Numbered from the stretch's first letter, positions 1,087 through 9,676 are shown. The stretch: DNA of 64,000 nt from Promethearchaeati archaeon SRVP18_Atabeyarchaeia-1 (GCA_037308085.1 CP147779.1:2112001-2176000); one strand, 5' to 3'. Translations and numbers: made by a program. The notes: generated by a model not told the origin, from the letters alone.

Positions 1087-1620
1087 CTAGTTGTGCTGCG
1101 CCCTTTCGGTCATCTTGTTGGCAAGAGCCTTGAAGGCTTCATCTACGCCTGAATCAATTTTCGCAGATGTCTCAACATATGTTGAATCGTATTCTGTCGC
1201 AAATTGAGTGCCTTCTTCGACTGGAACTCCGACTATTCCCTCACCTGGGTTTCTCAAATCCACCTTGTTGCCAACGACTATCATGGGTATCTTGCCGAGT
1301 ATCGCCTGGACTCTCTCGATCCAGTCAACTAGTCGATCCATGGAAGCCTTCCTGGTCACGTCGAAGACGGCCAGCATCCCCTTCGCACCCCTGAAATATA
1401 TGTCTGCAACTTCTTTGAAGTGGGGTTGTCCTCCCAGATCCCAGATCTGGAGGATCATGTCTCCAGCCCCATTTGATATCTTTTTGACTGAGAGGTCGAC
1501 TCCAATGGTCATCTTCATGTCTTGCGCGAAGGCGTCATCCACGTACTGCCTCACAAGGGACGTTTTGCCAACGCCGCCTTCTCCAATGACGATGATCTTG
1601 AAGACATTCCTTCTTATCAT
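1087..1620 (-). CDS. Rab-like small GTPase (Ras superfamily)
   Basis: G1 GEGGVGKT, G2 TIGVD, G3 WDLGGQ, G4 NKVD and G5 ETSAK are all present; there is no C-terminal CAAX/CC prenylation motif. Confidence 0.95.
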   Translation of the reverse strand: MIRRNVFKIIVIGEGGVGKTSLVRQYVDDAFAQDMKMTIGVDLSVKKISNGAGDMILQIWDLGGQPHFKEVADIYFRGAKGMLAVFDVTRKASMDRLVDWIERVQAILGKIPMIVVGNKVDLRNPGEGIVGVPVEEGTQFATEYDSTYVETSAKIDSGVDEAFKALANKMTERAQHN

Positions 1621-1623
1621 TGC

Positions 1624-3138
1624 CTACCGTTTCCTCCGCTCATAGAACCATCTGTCGAACCTTCCAGAGACACCCAAGAAGAAAATCAGCGCGCCAAGGA
1701 GAGCAAAGACGGCCCCCAATAGGCCAAGCAGCGAGCCCACGTACGCTATCGGGTCAGGGGTAAAGGCACTTATGACCTCAAGGGGAGAGGCGAATATTAG
1801 GAAAAGGAACCCTATGAAGATTCCCAGAACTCTTCCCCTTCCTCTCTCTTTTGCCTTGCTCATCCTCCGCAACAAGACACCGAACATTGCCCCTGGGGTC
1901 ACCGTTATCGCCAGACCCGCAGCTGCCATAATAATCAGAAACCACACAGGCATTGGATACAACATGATCGATATTATGACAAGTGGCGCAATGACTAGGG
2001 CAGGAGCCAAAATCAGGGATTTGCGGTCCAGAGCATACATGGCCGCAACAAATAGGAACCCACCAGTCAACATTCCAACTGGCAAGGCGATCATGTCGAA
2101 CCAAGGATAACGCGCCCCTGACAAGGCATAGATATCCTGACCCACGACAGACAACAAGAAGTCTAACCCAGCGAAAAATGAGAACAGCGAAAGCGCCAAG
2201 GTTTGTTTCGAACGACTCTCCCTGTATCGCCCATAGACGTACGAGCCACCCAGAATGAATATCATCGCCGCAATAGTCGTCAAGACCAAGCTGGCGACAT
2301 ATAGGAACGGAAACGCTCCAAGAAACAGAAGCAGGATGTAGATCTCCAGGCTCACCACCGGCATGGTAATCGTGTACCCGATGATCTCCCCGCCGATTTT
2401 TCTCTCGGAGTACTGGAAGAACCAGTAGATCAACGACAGCGAGGCGACCCCTATGAAGATCATCATCGGCATAAGTGAGATGAGATCCTGATACAGCGCG
2501 ACGTGACGGAAGTATTCTGGCGGAACTAGGTAGAAGCCAAGATATCCGATGTATTCGGACACCGTACGTGTATAGTAAAAGAAATAGGCATAGTATATGA
2601 TCAGCCCCAAAAACATGCCGAGAGCGGTTTTACGCTTAGTTCTCCTCCAGAGATATCCGAAGAGAACCATCGGTATCAGAAGCAGTAGTGAAACCGTGGC
2701 CACCCATATTGACAGATACGGGTCATCCAGAGGATGTTTTGGTGAGAGTAGTGACAAGGCGTAGGCGATTGCTAGCAGGCCCACAGGCAGCGCGTAGAAC
2801 CGGGGTCTTCTAAGAGAACCAACTACAGCTACAAGAAGAGCGAAGCCAAACAGCGGCATTGCTAACTCGGAGATCAGGTTCCACGGATACAGCGCGTCAA
2901 TAGAAGAAGGAGGAAGGATCGCAGGGGGGGATGGAAGAGCCAGAAATGAGTAGAAGGTAACCAAACTTGAGATCAACCCAAGCAAGAAGGAAAGTGAAAT
3001 AACAAGTGTAGGCGTGAGCGCCGATCTTTGGTCAACCGGGGTCTTACCTACTCTACCCCTATAGAAATTCAGTACAGATACGAAGCTGAATGCAAAGTTG
3101 AATCCCATGATAACTGCAGCAGCAGAAAGCGCATCCAT
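1624..3138 (-). CDS. Polytopic membrane protein, about 15 TM, internal 7TM tandem duplication
   Basis: ORF 1624..3186 with likely start ATG 3138 after AGGAG. About 15 hydrophobic segments; TM1-7 align by eye with TM9-15 (e.g. IPMVLFGYLWRR / TPGAMFGVLLRR; ALGMFLGLII / VLGIFIGFLF). Confidence 0.85.
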   Translation of the reverse strand: MDALSAAAVIMGFNFAFSFVSVLNFYRGRVGKTPVDQRSALTPTLVISLSFLLGLISSLVTFYSFLALPSPPAILPPSSIDALYPWNLISELAMPLFGFALLVAVVGSLRRPRFYALPVGLLAIAYALSLLSPKHPLDDPYLSIWVATVSLLLLIPMVLFGYLWRRTKRKTALGMFLGLIIYYAYFFYYTRTVSEYIGYLGFYLVPPEYFRHVALYQDLISLMPMMIFIGVASLSLIYWFFQYSERKIGGEIIGYTITMPVVSLEIYILLLFLGAFPFLYVASLVLTTIAAMIFILGGSYVYGRYRESRSKQTLALSLFSFFAGLDFLLSVVGQDIYALSGARYPWFDMIALPVGMLTGGFLFVAAMYALDRKSLILAPALVIAPLVIISIMLYPMPVWFLIIMAAAGLAITVTPGAMFGVLLRRMSKAKERGRGRVLGIFIGFLFLIFASPLEVISAFTPDPIAYVGSLLGLLGAVFALLGALIFFLGVSGRFDRWFYERRKR

Positions 3139-3164
3139 TTTCTTGCAGACTCTCCTTTTATGCC

Positions 3165-3557
3165 CTATAGACCCACTTCTGCCCAACTAGCCACCCTATC
3201 TCTTAGGCTGATCTTCTTCGTCACGGCATCCCTGATCTCCATCTCGACTAGTTTGTCCGCGAAGCTATTCTGATGATCCTCTATAATCTTGCAGACCTCA
3301 TGCAGCCGCCACTTGGCATCCTGGTCGCCTTTGTCAGCCACGAGGGCGACATATACGTGCCCATTTGCCTTGATGTGGAACTTGAAGTCCTTTACGTTGA
3401 TCTCCTCGATATCACCCTGTGCGATCTTCTTAGAGAATGACTCCATTGCAGAAAGGAATCCAGTGAGAAGGGTGCTGTCGGCCTCAATGCTTCCGAGTTT
3501 CATGGTTACGAGAGGCTCTCCGTTCTCGCTGAATACATACACATTATGGACTGTCAT
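3165..3557 (-). CDS. Longin-like domain protein
   Basis: VHNVYVFSENGEPLV...DSTLLTGFLSAMESFS...IEEI...FKFHI...VYVALVAD fits the beta-beta-alpha-beta-beta-beta-alpha longin (sedlin/AP-sigma-like) pattern common in Asgard archaea. Confidence 0.75.
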   Translation of the reverse strand: MTVHNVYVFSENGEPLVTMKLGSIEADSTLLTGFLSAMESFSKKIAQGDIEEINVKDFKFHIKANGHVYVALVADKGDQDAKWRLHEVCKIIEDHQNSFADKLVEMEIRDAVTKKISLRDRVASWAEVGL

Positions 3558-3605
3558 TCTCTCATCTCCACCCTCGTTGCCTTTCCGTGCAGGTGGGATT
3601 CTCGC

Positions 3606-3857
3606 TCATAGTTCCGCGATCCATTTTCTGGCTTTGTCAAGTCCACCCTCTGTCTTCGGATCAACCAGCGGCTCTGCATCCCTTATCTTGAACTGTCTGT
3701 CAACATAGAGTGCAACATCGTGCTTGCTTGGGCATCTTGCGGGCACAAGTGCCGGAGTGCGCTTAGAATCAAGTATATCTTCCTCCTTGATTATTATCCC
3801 CGTGATCATCGTCTTGCAGACCGGGCAGGGGTACCCAGCAAGTTTTCTTTCAGGCAT
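3606..3857 (-). CDS. Small Zn-binding protein (CxxC...CxxxH)
   Basis: 83 aa with CPVC...CPSKH...LYVD..F.IR; first gene of the co-oriented cluster that contains the longin and GTPase genes. Confidence 0.7.
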   Translation of the reverse strand: MPERKLAGYPCPVCKTMITGIIIKEEDILDSKRTPALVPARCPSKHDVALYVDRQFKIRDAEPLVDPKTEGGLDKARKWIAEL

Positions 3858-4382: not shown

Positions 4383-5798
4383 TTGGAGAGCCCGCCGAGC
4401 CTTAGAAGAACTGCGCTACTAATCGCTTCGCTGAGTTCCTTTCTTACGCCCTTCATGGGTTCTGCGATAAGCCTAGCGGTCCCACCCATCGCCGCGGAGT
4501 TCAACATGGATGCGGTCTCGCAGGGCTGGATCGTAACAGCCTATCTTCTGGCGGCCGCCATGTTTCTCGTTCCACTAGGAAAAGCAGCAGATATCCACGG
4601 AAGAAAGAAGGTTTACCAATACGGCATAATCCTTGATGCACTTGCAACTATTTTGTGCGCGATATCGTTCTCCTCGCCCTGGCTCATTTCCTTCAGGGTT
4701 CTACAAGGTTTCGGAGACGCAATGATATTCGGCACCAGCTTGGCAATTCTGATCGCCGTCTACCCATTCAGAGACAGGGGGAAAGTTCTTGGCATATCCA
4801 CGGCGGCAACTTACATCGGACTATCCTCTGGACCCTTCATAGGAGGATTCCTCACGCAGAACTTCGGGTGGAGAAGTATCTTCATCTTCATTCTCATTCT
4901 AGACGTAATCATAATCGTTCTACTGTTCTCTTGGCTCAAAGGAGAATGGAGCGGCTCGAAGGGTGACACGTTTGACTGGGGTGGAGCAGCAGTCTATGCC
5001 CTGATGCTTTTCCTGGCAATCTACGGTTTCACGCTCCTGCCACTCGTTCAAGCGTACTGGGTAATCGCAGGAAGCCTCTTGTTTCTCCTATTCTTCGCGC
5101 TTATAGAATCCAAGGTGAAATCTCCCGTATTGGAGCTGAAGCTCTTCAGGCACAACCCGGTATTCGCCTTCTCGAACCTCGCCGCACTCATTAACTACAG
5201 CGCGACATTCGCGGTGACCTTCCTCATGAGCCTCTATCTGGAAGATGTAAGGGGCTTCTCCCCGCAATATGCGGGAGTGATACTCGTGTCGCAGCCAATC
5301 ATCCAAGCGATCTTCTCGCCGATAACGGGTCGCCTATCGGACAGGGTTGAGCCGCGAATTGTCTCCTCCATCGGCATGGCAGTGCTGGTTTTCGGCCTCT
5401 ACCTATTTGTGCCCATAGACAGCTCAACAGATCTACAATTCATCATCGGGAATCTGATGATCCTTGGCTTCGGCTTCGCACTCTTTTCATCCCCAAACAT
5501 GAACGCGATCATGAGCTCGGTTGAAGGAAGATATTATGGGGTCGCCTCTGCAACGGCAGGAACGATGAGGCTTGTCGGCCAGTCGCTAAGCTTGGGGATC
5601 GCAATGCTCTTCTTCGCGCTAATCATCGGTAGAATACTCCCTTCCAACCCGCTCTATCCGGCCCTTCTTGTTAGCAGCATGAGGGCGCTATTCGCCATCT
5701 TCGCCGTGCTATGCTTCATCGGAATATTCGCGTCGCTGGCAAGAGGCAGAGTGAGAAGAGAGAACCAACGCGAAGGCAAAATGAAGGCGCATGATTAA
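4383..5798 (+). CDS. MFS drug/metabolite transporter (DHA2/EmrB-QacA-like)
   Basis: About 14 TM; motif A GKAADIHGRKK and GRLSDRVEPR; GPFIGGFL...GWRSIF motif. Confidence 0.92.
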   Translation: MESPPSLRRTALLIASLSSFLTPFMGSAISLAVPPIAAEFNMDAVSQGWIVTAYLLAAAMFLVPLGKAADIHGRKKVYQYGIILDALATILCAISFSSPWLISFRVLQGFGDAMIFGTSLAILIAVYPFRDRGKVLGISTAATYIGLSSGPFIGGFLTQNFGWRSIFIFILILDVIIIVLLFSWLKGEWSGSKGDTFDWGGAAVYALMLFLAIYGFTLLPLVQAYWVIAGSLLFLLFFALIESKVKSPVLELKLFRHNPVFAFSNLAALINYSATFAVTFLMSLYLEDVRGFSPQYAGVILVSQPIIQAIFSPITGRLSDRVEPRIVSSIGMAVLVFGLYLFVPIDSSTDLQFIIGNLMILGFGFALFSSPNMNAIMSSVEGRYYGVASATAGTMRLVGQSLSLGIAMLFFALIIGRILPSNPLYPALLVSSMRALFAIFAVLCFIGIFASLARGRVRRENQREGKMKAHD

Positions 5799-7114: not shown

Positions 7115-9676
7115 ATGAGTTCGAAAAATGTTGGTGGCACCTGCTATTTTCTGGGTCATAGTCACATTGATGCCGCGTGGCTTTGGACCTTCCCGGATAC
7201 GATGAATGTTATTCATGATACCTTTGAAACTGTCCTCGCCCTCATGGACAAGTATGCTGGGTTCATCTTCTGCCAGAGTAGCGCCCAGTACTACAAGTGG
7301 CTGGAGGAGAAGCACCCAGAAACCTTCGACAAAGTCAGGAAGAGGGTGAAGGATGGTCGCTGGGAAATCGTCGGGGGCTCGTGGGTGGAGCCAGATGGAA
7401 ACCTTCCTTCAGGAGAATCGTATGTGAGGCAGTATCTCTATGGAAAACGGTACTTCAAGGAGAAGTTTGGTGTCGAAGTCAAAGTTGCATGGATGCCTGA
7501 CTCATTCGGATATGCTTGGACCCTACCCCAGATAATGAAGAAGGCTGGAATGCTTTACTTCCTTACCCAAAAAATGAGTTGGAACGACACAACAGTTTTC
7601 CCCCACCACTTCTTCAAGTGGGTGGCCCCCGACGGCTCCTGGCTCTACGCTCACCAGAATGTGGGCTCATATAGTGAGACCGTTGCTGAGCAGGACATGG
7701 TCAGGCAGATGAAGGATTTGCGGTCTAGTCAGCAACTGGACGATCTGTTGGTCCTCTTCGGGGTTGGAGATCATGGAGGAGGAGTCACAGAAGATATGAT
7801 CAAGAATGCGACAGAATTCGTCGATGGGAAGAAGCAACTGAAAGGTGTCTTCACAACGGCTCACGATTTCTTCAACACGATAATCAAGAAAACTCAGGGG
7901 AAGATCCCAGAACTCAACGACGAGATGTATCTCGAATTCCATCGTGGGACTTACACGACGCAGTCAAGGACAAAGAAGAACAATAGAAGGGCTGAATGCC
8001 TCCTAGAAACTGCTGAGAAATTCTCAACTCTTGCAACGATGTATGGTTATAGGTATCCAATCGCGGAATTCAGAGACTGTTGGGAGAAGCTTCTGCTGAA
8101 CCAGTTCCATGATGTCCTGCCTGGGTCGGCAATATCGGATGTCTATAGGGATTCCGAAGAGTACTTCAAATCAATCTTCGGGACGCTGGACTCGGTAACC
8201 TCAAGATCTCTGAAGGCGATTGCATCCAAGATTGACACATCTGGGGAAGGCAGATCGCTACTTGTATTCAATCCTCTGTCGTGGGAGAGAACTGATGTGG
8301 CCGAGTTTTCTCTGAAGGATACCGGGGACATATCCGAGATCTACGACGAAAACGGGCAGTTGATCCCATCGCAAATAATCGAGGAGGAAAGAAAGCTCAT
8401 TTTCGTAGCAAAAGGCGTGCCATCGATTGGCTACAAGGAGTACAAGGCCAAACGTACGGGTCAAGTGAGGAAGAAGCTAACGACCGACATATCCGCAAAG
8501 GAGACAGACAGAGAAATCAAAATGGAGAACGATTTCCTTATACTCAAGATTGACAAGGAGACCGGACTAATAAGCAGCGTTTTTGACAAGACGACGCAGA
8601 AGGAAATCGTTCGAGGTGAAGCAAACCTAGTCCAGATCTTCGACGACACCCCTGTTAGTGGAAGAACCAGCGTTGCCTACCCTATCGATGCATCGATGTT
8701 CGACGCTTGGGAAACCTTCATCCACCAACAAAAGGGCGGATCAAAGTGTACCGAATTGAGCCATCCAGTCATAGTAAGACTGGCAGAGAATGGACCAGTG
8801 AGAGCGCGGATCCAGGCTAAACACCAGTACAGCCAACAAGGCAGACAGGACTCGGCATTTGTCCAGGAGATAATTCTACATCATGGGATTCCGTTGGTGC
8901 AGTTCAAGATAAGCGTAGACTGGCACGCGGAGCACAGACTCGCGAAGGTAGCTTTCCCGCTGAGTATCCGCAGCGATCATACGACCTACGAAATCCCCTA
9001 CGGTTTCATTACCCGCCTCGACCCCACCTCACCCAAAGCAACGAAAGCTGAAAAAGCCAAGTACGAGGCCTCAGGTCAGAAATGGATCGACCACACTAGC
9101 GAAGATAACAGCTACGGCGTCAGTCTCCTCAACGACTGCAAATATGGCTTCGATGTGGCCAGTGACGTGATCAGAATGACGCTCCTAAGAAGCGCCTCCT
9201 ATCCCTTTGGATTGCGCCGGCTCTTCGGTCTTCCAGTAGATGATGCCACGCTATCGCAGCTAACCGACCAGGGAGCACATACGGTCTCATACGCACTCTA
9301 CCCACATGGATCGAGCTTCAAGGAAGCTCTGACAGCCAGAAAGGCCTATGAATTCAACTACCCACTGGTTGCCGTTCCGGAGCCAAGCCACAAAGGGGAT
9401 CTGCCTAAATCACACTCCTTCATCACAGCTGAACCAGACAACGTAATTATCACGGTCTTCAAGAAGGCAGAAGACTCAGAAAACACAATCCTAAGATGCT
9501 ACGAAACCAATGGAAAAAATGCGAAACTCACCATACGGACGCCCGAAGCATTCAAGAAGGCCTCCGAGACCGACCTCATGGAAAACCAAACATCCACCCC
9601 CGTCGCCAATGAGAAAATAGTCAACCTACCGATATCCAAGCACGAGATAAAGACACTAGAGCTCAGCAAGAGCTAG
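7115..9676 (+). CDS. Alpha-mannosidase, glycoside hydrolase family 38
   Basis: GHSHIDAAWLW Zn motif, WMPDSFG nucleophile, GVGDHGGG, LYLEFHRGTYT-like segment and NQFHDVLPGS. Confidence 0.95.
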   Translation: MSSKNVGGTCYFLGHSHIDAAWLWTFPDTMNVIHDTFETVLALMDKYAGFIFCQSSAQYYKWLEEKHPETFDKVRKRVKDGRWEIVGGSWVEPDGNLPSGESYVRQYLYGKRYFKEKFGVEVKVAWMPDSFGYAWTLPQIMKKAGMLYFLTQKMSWNDTTVFPHHFFKWVAPDGSWLYAHQNVGSYSETVAEQDMVRQMKDLRSSQQLDDLLVLFGVGDHGGGVTEDMIKNATEFVDGKKQLKGVFTTAHDFFNTIIKKTQGKIPELNDEMYLEFHRGTYTTQSRTKKNNRRAECLLETAEKFSTLATMYGYRYPIAEFRDCWEKLLLNQFHDVLPGSAISDVYRDSEEYFKSIFGTLDSVTSRSLKAIASKIDTSGEGRSLLVFNPLSWERTDVAEFSLKDTGDISEIYDENGQLIPSQIIEEERKLIFVAKGVPSIGYKEYKAKRTGQVRKKLTTDISAKETDREIKMENDFLILKIDKETGLISSVFDKTTQKEIVRGEANLVQIFDDTPVSGRTSVAYPIDASMFDAWETFIHQQKGGSKCTELSHPVIVRLAENGPVRARIQAKHQYSQQGRQDSAFVQEIILHHGIPLVQFKISVDWHAEHRLAKVAFPLSIRSDHTTYEIPYGFITRLDPTSPKATKAEKAKYEASGQKWIDHTSEDNSYGVSLLNDCKYGFDVASDVIRMTLLRSASYPFGLRRLFGLPVDDATLSQLTDQGAHTVSYALYPHGSSFKEALTARKAYEFNYPLVAVPEPSHKGDLPKSHSFITAEPDNVIITVFKKAEDSENTILRCYETNGKNAKLTIRTPEAFKKASETDLMENQTSTPVANEKIVNLPISKHEIKTLELSKS

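Follow-up and report, generated by a model that had tools for sequence, protein, structure and literature searches.

The complete, 2.81 Mb genome of the Asgard archaeon Promethearchaeati archaeon SRVP18_Atabeyarchaeia-1 carries a compact operon of four genes, which encode a zinc-ribbon (Zn-ribbon) protein, a longin-fold protein, a membrane protein with 15 predicted transmembrane (TM) helices and a Rab-like small GTPase. The operon occupies positions 1087-3857 of the window, by which we mean the whole stretch of 64,000 nucleotides that was analysed (GCA_037308085.1, CP147779.1:2112001-2176000). All four genes lie on the minus strand and are separated by gaps of 48, 26 and 3 bp (Table 1); an initial annotation of this DNA had described the same arrangement as a candidate membrane signalling operon, and the coordinates of the open reading frames (ORFs) confirm that the observation is real. 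Asgard archaea possess dozens of Ras-superfamily GTPases together with many longin and roadblock proteins, but to our knowledge the pairing of regulators with GTPases in these organisms, and the targeting of anchor-less GTPases to membranes, are largely unknown. No description of this operon was found in the literature, of which our coverage was incomplete; the module is genuine and conserved in Asgard archaea, and apparently has not been described before.

Table 1. Coordinates of the four genes and of the predicted parts of the membrane protein within the window.
Feature	Position	Strand	Description
Zn-ribbon protein P0001	3606..3857	-	ORF of 83 amino acids
Longin-fold protein P0002	3165..3557	-	ORF of 130 amino acids
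15-TM membrane protein P0003	1624..3138	-	504 amino acids; two homologous seven-TM (7TM) units with one linker helix between them, then a basic amphipathic helix at the C-terminus
Rab-like small GTPase P0004	1087..1620	-	177 amino acids; G1-G5 intact, catalytic Gln65, no lipidation motif
N-terminal 7TM unit, TM1-TM7, residues 1-242	2413..3138	-	Helices from the AlphaFold2 model; more diverged copy, alignable with the C-terminal unit
Linker helix TM8, residues 252-271	2326..2385	-	Restores N-out orientation for the second unit
C-terminal 7TM unit, TM9-TM15, residues 278-492	1663..2307	-	Predicted fold like that of G-protein-coupled receptors (GPCRs)
C-terminal cytoplasmic amphipathic helix, residues 493-504	1627..1662	-	Position of GPCR helix 8; G-R-x-D-[RK] motif conserved in the family

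Conservation of the four-gene set in Asgard archaea

We surveyed 400 Asgard genomes in 31 families, for which we use numbers with the prefix f, f31 being the Thorarchaeota. A full-length gene for the double-7TM protein is present in three families, namely the window's own (3 of 3 genomes), f12 (3 of 19) and the Thorarchaeota (44 of 89), and the remaining 28 families in the sample yielded no full operon. Profile searches of 20 loci taken from f12 and f31 recovered the Zn-ribbon, longin and membrane genes together in every case; 19 of the loci allowed the GTPase gene to be assessed as well, and every one of them has it within the cluster, 17 in the order Zn-ribbon, longin, membrane protein, GTPase. 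The synteny by which the initial annotation proposed to check its operon thus extends to distant lineages, in which identity of the membrane protein is only 19-27%. The same gene set holds in metagenomic relatives, the orthologous genes frequently overlap in other genomes, and clustering of flanking ORFs returned these four families as the only universal ones, with no fifth.

The GTPases of these cassettes are a lineage apart. In a maximum-likelihood tree built from Asgard paralogues only, all 26 cassette-linked GTPases fall in one clade (ultrafast bootstrap and Shimodaira-Hasegawa-like approximate likelihood-ratio test, 100/99; stem length 1.04), which follows the lineages and excludes the 14 other Ras-like paralogues of the genome that were included. 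Given the conserved gene set and this dedicated clade, the operon is therefore an old, co-inherited unit with its own GTPase. The suggestion of a possible module predating eukaryotes has to be narrowed: the full operon was found in three Asgard families only, and its link to eukaryotic receptor-G-protein systems is therefore one of analogy and not of demonstrated ancestry.

Several variants of the cassette were observed. A close metagenomic relative (L003:8264-11357) carries the double-7TM gene twice in tandem (504 and 497 amino acids) between the longin and GTPase genes. In one Thorarchaeota locus (L028:1775-3230) a second cassette of Zn-ribbon, longin and GTPase genes, with no membrane gene, stands just upstream of a full cassette, and the near identity of the two GTPases suggests a recent duplication. 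The cassette of locus L004 is without a GTPase, and in L039 and L040 the GTPase gene comes first.

Predicted structure and conservation of the four proteins

By profile comparison, the membrane protein is a true internal duplication, well above chance. When its halves were aligned with HHalign using close homologues, the match had a probability of 92.5%, an E-value of 4.9e-7 and a score of 51.6, against 40 local column shuffles (mean 16.3, sd 3.3, maximum 26) and reversed profiles (19.7 and 16.9). With the broad family these values rose to 97.3%, 2.1e-11 and 80.1 over 175 columns, residues 37-250 aligning with 306-492 (controls: mean 14.4, maximum 18.8). A subset restricted to Thorarchaeota and f12 sequences gave an E-value of 2.9e-10, and the duplication is therefore ancestral to the family. 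All eight repeat motifs that had been quoted are present, in pairs at residues 44-54/313-324, 110-118/371-379 (RRPRFYALP/DRKSLILAP), 156-166/415-425 (PMVLFGYLWRR/PGAMFGVLLRR) and 172-178/437-443 (ALGMFLG/VLGIFIG).

The AlphaFold2 (AF2) model of the protein (mean predicted local distance difference test, pLDDT, 81; predicted TM-score 0.78) contains 15 TM helices, after which the chain closes with an amphipathic helix. Lysine and arginine residues number 33 in the inside loops and 3 in the outside loops, and under the positive-inside rule both 7TM units are therefore N-out/C-in, with TM8 as a single linker. The claims of about 15 helices containing a seven-helix repeat, and of one linker helix that keeps both units in the same orientation, were in this way borne out by the 7+1+7 arrangement of the model, the alignment of the halves and the charge distribution. 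There is no Pfam family for the protein, and its own family is small, with 21 representative clusters matched among 1.84 billion proteins; the nearest named relatives are from Candidatus Atabeyarchaeum deiterrae (54% identity) and Njordarchaeota (50%).

The C-terminal unit is predicted to have a GPCR-like 7TM fold and helix arrangement. In an exhaustive structure comparison with VIA-align, residues 276-496 matched best the 7TM domain of the adhesion receptor ADGRL3 (8jmt; Z 18.5, rmsd 3.5 A, 209 of 234 residues), a score that exceeds the helical-bundle background of about Z 13-14 by a margin that is not wide. Apart from ACER3 (Z 12.7) and LYCHOS/GPR155, the top 50 chains belonged to GPCRs of various classes or to designed folds resembling them, and sequence identity to these structural matches is 6-14%. 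Searches of Pfam and NCBIfam at E<=1 returned no GPCR family (7tm_1, 7tm_2, 7tm_3, Frizzled or others). The 7TM nature of the N-terminal unit rests on the full AF2 model, its homology to the C-terminal unit and an independent ESM Atlas model of residues 1-246, which resembles 7TM bundles of PAQR/TrhA type (TM-scores 0.62 and 0.68). For the whole 504-residue model Foldseek found nothing in the PDB at E<=1e-3, and only the domain-wise VIA-align comparison was informative.

Other identities were considered and set aside. Membership of the major facilitator superfamily (MFS) had been prompted by flanking MFS-like genes and a weak NCBIfam match; that match (TIGR00900) reaches 25.8 bits where the cut-off is 319.6, Pfam returned no MFS family, Foldseek probabilities for MFS or MATE folds are 0.2 or less, and the repeat unit has seven helices rather than the 6+6 of MFS. 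The known transporter fold that would have spoken against the initial annotation was found by neither Foldseek nor VIA-align. A microbial rhodopsin was rejected for want of a retinal-binding lysine in TM7 (residues 213-242) or TM15 (470-492), and a hydrolase of the PAQR/alkaline ceramidase (CREST) type was rejected because there is no conserved His/Asp set and the topology is N-out, not N-in.

Conservation in the membrane protein is concentrated on its cytoplasmic side. The family invariants are E251, Y255, R304, T313, L316, P379, P415 and G492, of which the first four stand at the cytoplasmic ends of TM8 to TM10, E251 and Y255 at that of TM8. Mean conservation across the broad family is 0.55 in the inner loops and 0.58 in the inner TM halves, compared with 0.40 in the outer TM halves and 0.24 in the outer loops, and 38 of the 40 most conserved positions are cytoplasmic (permutation test, p<1e-4). 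No outward-facing residue is conserved across the family; a candidate ligand or metal site around H135/D138 and H212 was dropped, being kept among close relatives only and not in the broad family.

A broad membrane-protein profile also detected stand-alone 7TM proteins of 195-261 amino acids in other Asgard families. For two groups of them the alignment with the C-terminal unit spans the complete set of seven helices (HHalign E 1.4e-12; control maximum 23.8). Of 11 single-7TM genes sampled in families f19 and f20, eight are immediately preceded or overlapped by a longin gene with a match to the cassette longin profile, and neither a GTPase nor a Zn-ribbon gene was found near these pairs. The pairing of longin and 7TM genes therefore reaches beyond the four-gene operon, and is the best evidence, indirect and drawn from gene neighbourhood, that the longin works on the 7TM protein. 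Representatives of this first group (L058:1536-2552 and L063-L071) consist of a longin of about 140 amino acids ending in KLKGMW and a 7TM protein of about 196 amino acids. Members of the second group have 238-261 amino acids and come from f17 (L061:3855-5624) and f15 (L059, L060 and L062); no longin or GTPase was detected alongside them. Two tandem single-7TM copies in L061 could represent the state of the double-7TM gene before fusion.

The longin-fold protein has an AF2 model of pLDDT 72, in which DSSP assigns strands at residues 3-10, 15-20, 51-55, 58-65 and 68-75 and helices at 28-44, 81-94, 102-113 and 118-128. The predicted beta-beta-alpha-beta-beta-beta-alpha-alpha topology, with no N-terminal helix, is that of a longin and distinct from that of a roadblock domain. 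The best structural match in VIA-align is synbindin/TRAPPC4 (2zmv; Z 13.7, rmsd 2.3 A, 113 residues), followed by AP-3 sigma (Z 12.4), VAMP7 (11.7), sedlin (11.6) and Sec22 (11.4), with roadblock proteins at about 8-9, and the 48 Foldseek matches at E<=1e-3 are longin-fold and roadblock/Ragulator proteins. As a predicted model, this supports the longin that had been annotated here. Sequence searches gave weaker matches, all below threshold in Pfam (Fuz_longin_1, 15.4 bits against a cut-off of 26.1; Robl_LC7, 13.3 against 23), and a weak profile match to Bet5/TRAPPC1 (E about 0.7). Residues G13, G33 and W125 are invariant and the tail ends in [KR]AxxWA-x3-L. Among the orthologues there is no conserved arginine or lysine, and an arginine-finger GTPase-activating protein (GAP) of the GATOR1/FLCN type is therefore unlikely; a platform role, or one like that of a guanine-nucleotide exchange factor (GEF), appears more likely.

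The Zn-ribbon protein, whose gene precedes that of the longin in the cassettes examined, has no Pfam or NCBIfam match. Its metal site has the form CPxC...C...H (C11, C14, C42 and H46); in 18-23 cassette orthologues the three cysteines are invariant and H46 is at least 90% conserved. F56, R59, E62 and W79 are also invariant, R59 being a candidate catalytic or contact residue, and the tail ends in DKAxKW-x3-[LF]. The Zn-ribbon and longin proteins accordingly finish in similar Trp-containing amphipathic tails. When expressed as the motif [KRDE][KR][AVT]xxW[AMIVLG]x(2-4)[LFMI]-COOH, this tail occurs in two of 10,342 ORFs of the genome, the cassette longin and the cassette Zn-ribbon protein. With 23 orthologues compared for each, 21 Zn-ribbon proteins and 15 longins carry it. 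An 80-residue ORF elsewhere in the genome, a loose match, was discarded since it lies inside a longer ORF in another frame. The occurrence of two similar tails and two 7TM units suggests one tail per unit.

Strong full-length matches to the Zn-ribbon protein are confined, among the 400 genomes, to the three operon-carrying families, and weaker matches to its core alone occur within larger proteins in 255 of the 400. A Ras-like GTPase gene adjoins half of the eight core-only matches that were sampled, and judging from these sequences the core is a wider Asgard domain that recurs beside such genes. The same genome holds, outside the window (C1:2391614-2392765, equivalent to L057:2614-3765), a second Zn-ribbon-domain protein of 178 amino acids, the remainder of which has no Pfam match; it is encoded directly downstream of a Ras-like GTPase gene whose product belongs to the sister clade of the cassette GTPases. 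A Thorarchaeota locus (genome G335, contig 6; L056:4151-7218) encodes a leucine-rich-repeat protein, a Ras-like GTPase, a Zn-ribbon fused to a DUF742-like winged helix and a V4R-domain protein, the V4R match being under its cut-off (25.3 bits against 31) and the DUF742-like, or CvnC-like, domain borderline (PF05331; E 5.9e-6, 26.5 bits against 27). In f12, three Zn-ribbon matches contain an in-frame TGA or TAG (G093:C24:51722-51970, G099:C23:21132-21377 and G108:C118:4215-4451), which may reflect pseudogenes, sequencing errors or recoding.

The GTPase belongs to the Ras family (PF00071, E 3.8e-45), and its closest solved relative is a Thorarchaeota Rab (7ezb, 2.7e-32), followed by Rab18, Rab1A, Rab2A and Rab8A. 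It has the motifs GxxxxGKT, T38 of switch I, DxxGQ65, NKxD and SAK, all of which its 23 orthologues conserve. A lipid anchor was sought in the form of a C-terminal cysteine motif (CC, CXC or CAAX) or an N-terminal Gly2, neither of which exists in P0004, and the 23 orthologues have no consistent terminal cysteine motif; the description of a Rab-like GTPase devoid of a lipidation motif was therefore accurate.

A putative membrane-anchored GTPase switch

We consider it somewhat probable that the four genes encode a single membrane-anchored small-GTPase switch. The double-7TM protein would lie in the cytoplasmic membrane with both units N-out/C-in, and its conserved cytoplasmic face would form a docking platform. 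The longin and Zn-ribbon proteins might dock there through their similar Trp tails, possibly one to each 7TM unit; together they would bind the cassette's own GTPase, which lacks an anchor, and determine its nucleotide state, such that the GTPase would be active only at that membrane site. It is established that small GTPases repeatedly have longin or roadblock domains as partners, in the role of GEF, GAP or platform (TRAPP, Mon1-Ccz1, GATOR1, FLCN, SRX-SRbeta and MglB). The interpretation given with the initial annotation is supported in part: the longin fold, the tandem of 7TM units, the anchor-less Rab-like GTPase and the conserved gene order bear it out, whereas the complex itself, recruitment of the longin or GTPase by the membrane protein, the contacts between partners and regulation of GEF or GAP type are inferred, and sensing by the 7TM units and any downstream steps are conjectural.

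Several points weigh against such a switch. Its basis is wholly computational, comprising the operon and gene set, the GTPase clade, the predicted folds and topology, the conservation bias, the motifs and the longin-7TM pairing; the structural models were built on shallow alignments of 15-23 sequences. The tail pattern was composed after both families had been seen, which makes its rarity partly circular. The bias in conservation is only suggestive, as outward-facing loops are less conserved in many membrane proteins. The longin, having no conserved arginine or lysine, is unlikely to act by an arginine-finger mechanism. Cassettes lacking one part (L028, L004 and the f19/f20 pairs) indicate that the parts can work in other combinations. 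Fused forms were absent among the 21 representative matches of the membrane protein, and a homologue search for longer proteins containing the longin also returned none, which is weak evidence. Prediction of a complex between the membrane protein and the longin, made without controls, gave ipSAE scores of 0.17 and 0.31 against a mark of 0.32 and speaks neither for nor against binding.

The double-7TM protein might alternatively recognise a ligand outside the cell and act, by way of the longin, as an exchange factor for the GTPase under ligand control, which would make the system a functional analogue of GPCR-G-protein coupling. Such receptor-type signalling would suit the GPCR-like fold and N-out/C-in topology, the basic C-terminal helix resembling helix 8, the conserved and basic cytoplasmic loops between TM5 and TM6 and between TM13 and TM14, the presence of a GTPase in the operon, and a variable outer face of the kind expected under diversifying ligand specificity. 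We nevertheless regard it as unlikely, because no outward-facing residue is conserved family-wide (H135, D138 and H212 being shared by close relatives only), there is no extracellular domain and nothing points to ligand binding. It is similarly doubtful that the protein is a genuine archaeal receptor, in which a signal perceived within or across the membrane would alter the cytoplasmic face and pass directly via tail-docked longin and Zn-ribbon proteins to nucleotide exchange on the Rab-like GTPase; the longin-7TM pair would then be the older core of the relay, because single 7TM units pair with longins in other Asgard families. If true, this would place a relay from 7TM receptor to G protein in the closest archaeal relatives of eukaryotes.

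Slightly more doubtful is a reading in which the main function resides in the membrane protein, be it a transporter, channel, lipid scramblase or transceptor, and the GTPase, longin and Zn-ribbon protein regulate it or report its state, much as SLC38A9 and LYCHOS act with Rag-Ragulator and GATOR1 on lysosomes. In this genome and in close relatives the operon has MFS-like transporter genes on either side, LYCHOS/GPR155 is among the weak whole-model matches, and some 7TM folds, such as the rhodopsins, do transport. Yet the absence of any transporter fold, of support for an MFS identity and of a retinal-binding lysine has been described above; in addition, the membrane core has few conserved polar residues, the invariants are at the cytoplasmic surface, and the MFS neighbours are not kept in Thorarchaeota loci. 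Least probable, in our estimation, is one co-regulated pathway without a stable complex, in which the 7TM protein might be the cargo or client of a primitive Rab/longin sorting step: cassettes do exist without one component and no fusions were found, but order and tight spacing persist at 19-27% identity, the GTPase clade is dedicated to the cassette and conservation of the membrane protein gathers on the cytoplasmic surface, and conserved order and spacing with a dedicated partner usually mark products that interact physically.

For a membrane-anchored switch, the closest system in logic, by analogy, is the actinobacterial conservon, or actinobacterial G protein system (AGPS; PMC13343842), in which a Ras-like GTPase is paired with a membrane sensor, a roadblock protein and DUF742. 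Both are four-gene prokaryotic operons that combine a membrane protein of presumed input function (CvnA), a protein of the roadblock/longin superfamily (CvnB), a small protein of unknown role (CvnC) and a Ras-like GTPase (CvnD), and the fusion in L056 of a Zn-ribbon relative to the borderline CvnC-like domain, beside a GTPase gene, is a further likeness. The components themselves differ. CvnA is a histidine-kinase-like sensor, whereas the Asgard protein is a double 7TM with no HisKA, HATPase or soluble domain; CvnB is an MglB-type roadblock, whereas its Asgard counterpart has longin topology and weaker roadblock matches; and CvnC is DUF742, to which the Zn-ribbon protein P0001 has no match. 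Only CvnD, a small Ras-like GTPase, has an equivalent in the Rab-like GTPase. Failing on three of the four components, the operon is therefore not a member of the conservon family, from which it also differs in gene order and in its archaeal host. We infer that it is a variant of the prokaryotic small-GTPase signalling operon.

Among eukaryotic systems, TRAPP (with TRAPPC4/synbindin and TRAPPC1/Bet5), Mon1-Ccz1 and DENN proteins offer the nearest likeness to the longin, which matches synbindin best and is paired with a Rab-like GTPase. In contrast to TRAPP, a single small longin is present and the operon holds no Bet3/TRAPPC3 partner; in contrast to eukaryotic Rab regulators generally, membrane attachment is proposed to occur via a polytopic protein and not through a prenylated Rab or lipid binding, and GEF activity of the longin is conjectural. 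MglA-MglB of Myxococcus, like other archaeal and bacterial roadblock-GTPase pairs, sets a prokaryotic Ras-like GTPase gene beside a regulator of the roadblock/longin superfamily, but MglB is a GAP dimer of roadblock fold with no 7TM or Zn-ribbon partner, and roadblock matches of P0002 (Z about 8) fall below its longin matches. Another Asgard operon links a LAMTOR1-like roadblock protein, a Rab-like GTPase and a DENN-domain protein (Liu et al., bioRxiv 10.1101/2020.10.19.343400); it shares with ours the association of a Rab-like GTPase with a roadblock/longin-superfamily protein, but includes neither a membrane protein nor a Zn-ribbon, while our operon has no DENN protein. For strain MK-D1, Tran et al. 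(2024, PMC10933270) state that GTPase genes as a rule do not share operons with those for roadblock, longin or TRAPPC3 proteins, and the GTPase-longin pairing described here is therefore unusual.

GPCRs, of which the adhesion class B2 (ADGRL3) is closest, share the predicted 7TM fold and the N-out/C-in topology. They differ in that no GPCR family is detectable here by sequence, the GTPase of the operon is monomeric and Rab-like with no heterotrimeric G protein, and two bundles are joined in one chain. LYCHOS/GPR155, acting with GATOR1-Rag, likewise associates a GPCR-like bundle with longin-containing GTPase regulators, but its match to the whole model is poor (rmsd 12.5 A).

The layout of genomes rarely helps to pair GTPases with their regulators (Tran et al. 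2024, PMC10933270). This operon is a case that can be read from the genome, joining one GTPase clade to one longin, one zinc protein and one membrane partner of predicted receptor-like fold, and all four proteins are small enough for expression and reconstitution. Should they form a complex, it would offer a simple model of the membrane-localised GTPase switching that underlies eukaryotic trafficking and nutrient sensing, and a test of whether the coupling of 7TM proteins to small GTPases is older than heterotrimeric G proteins; should they not, the conserved four-gene set would still be a new and unexplained Asgard module. New comparative points are in any case provided by the longin-paired stand-alone 7TM proteins, the shared Trp tail and the wider Asgard distribution of the Zn-ribbon core.

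Gene boundaries and neighbouring genes

The membrane-protein gene is taken to start at the ATG at 3138, which agrees with the N-termini of 14 homologues; its longest ORF runs from a TTG at 3186. Upstream of the Zn-ribbon gene there are AT-rich boxes at a distance of about 115-190 nt from its start, and no clear T-run terminator was found downstream of the GTPase gene. Transporter-like genes with multiple TM helices are situated on both sides of the operon, at 1-867 on the minus strand and 4383-5798 on the plus strand. In two syntenic relatives (L001 and L003) the corresponding flanking genes are MFS members by Pfam, and Thorarchaeota loci are without them. Further along the window, an ORF of 853 amino acids (7115-9676, plus strand) has the same position as a gene of the glycoside hydrolase family 38 (GH38) alpha-mannosidase family in syntenic L003.

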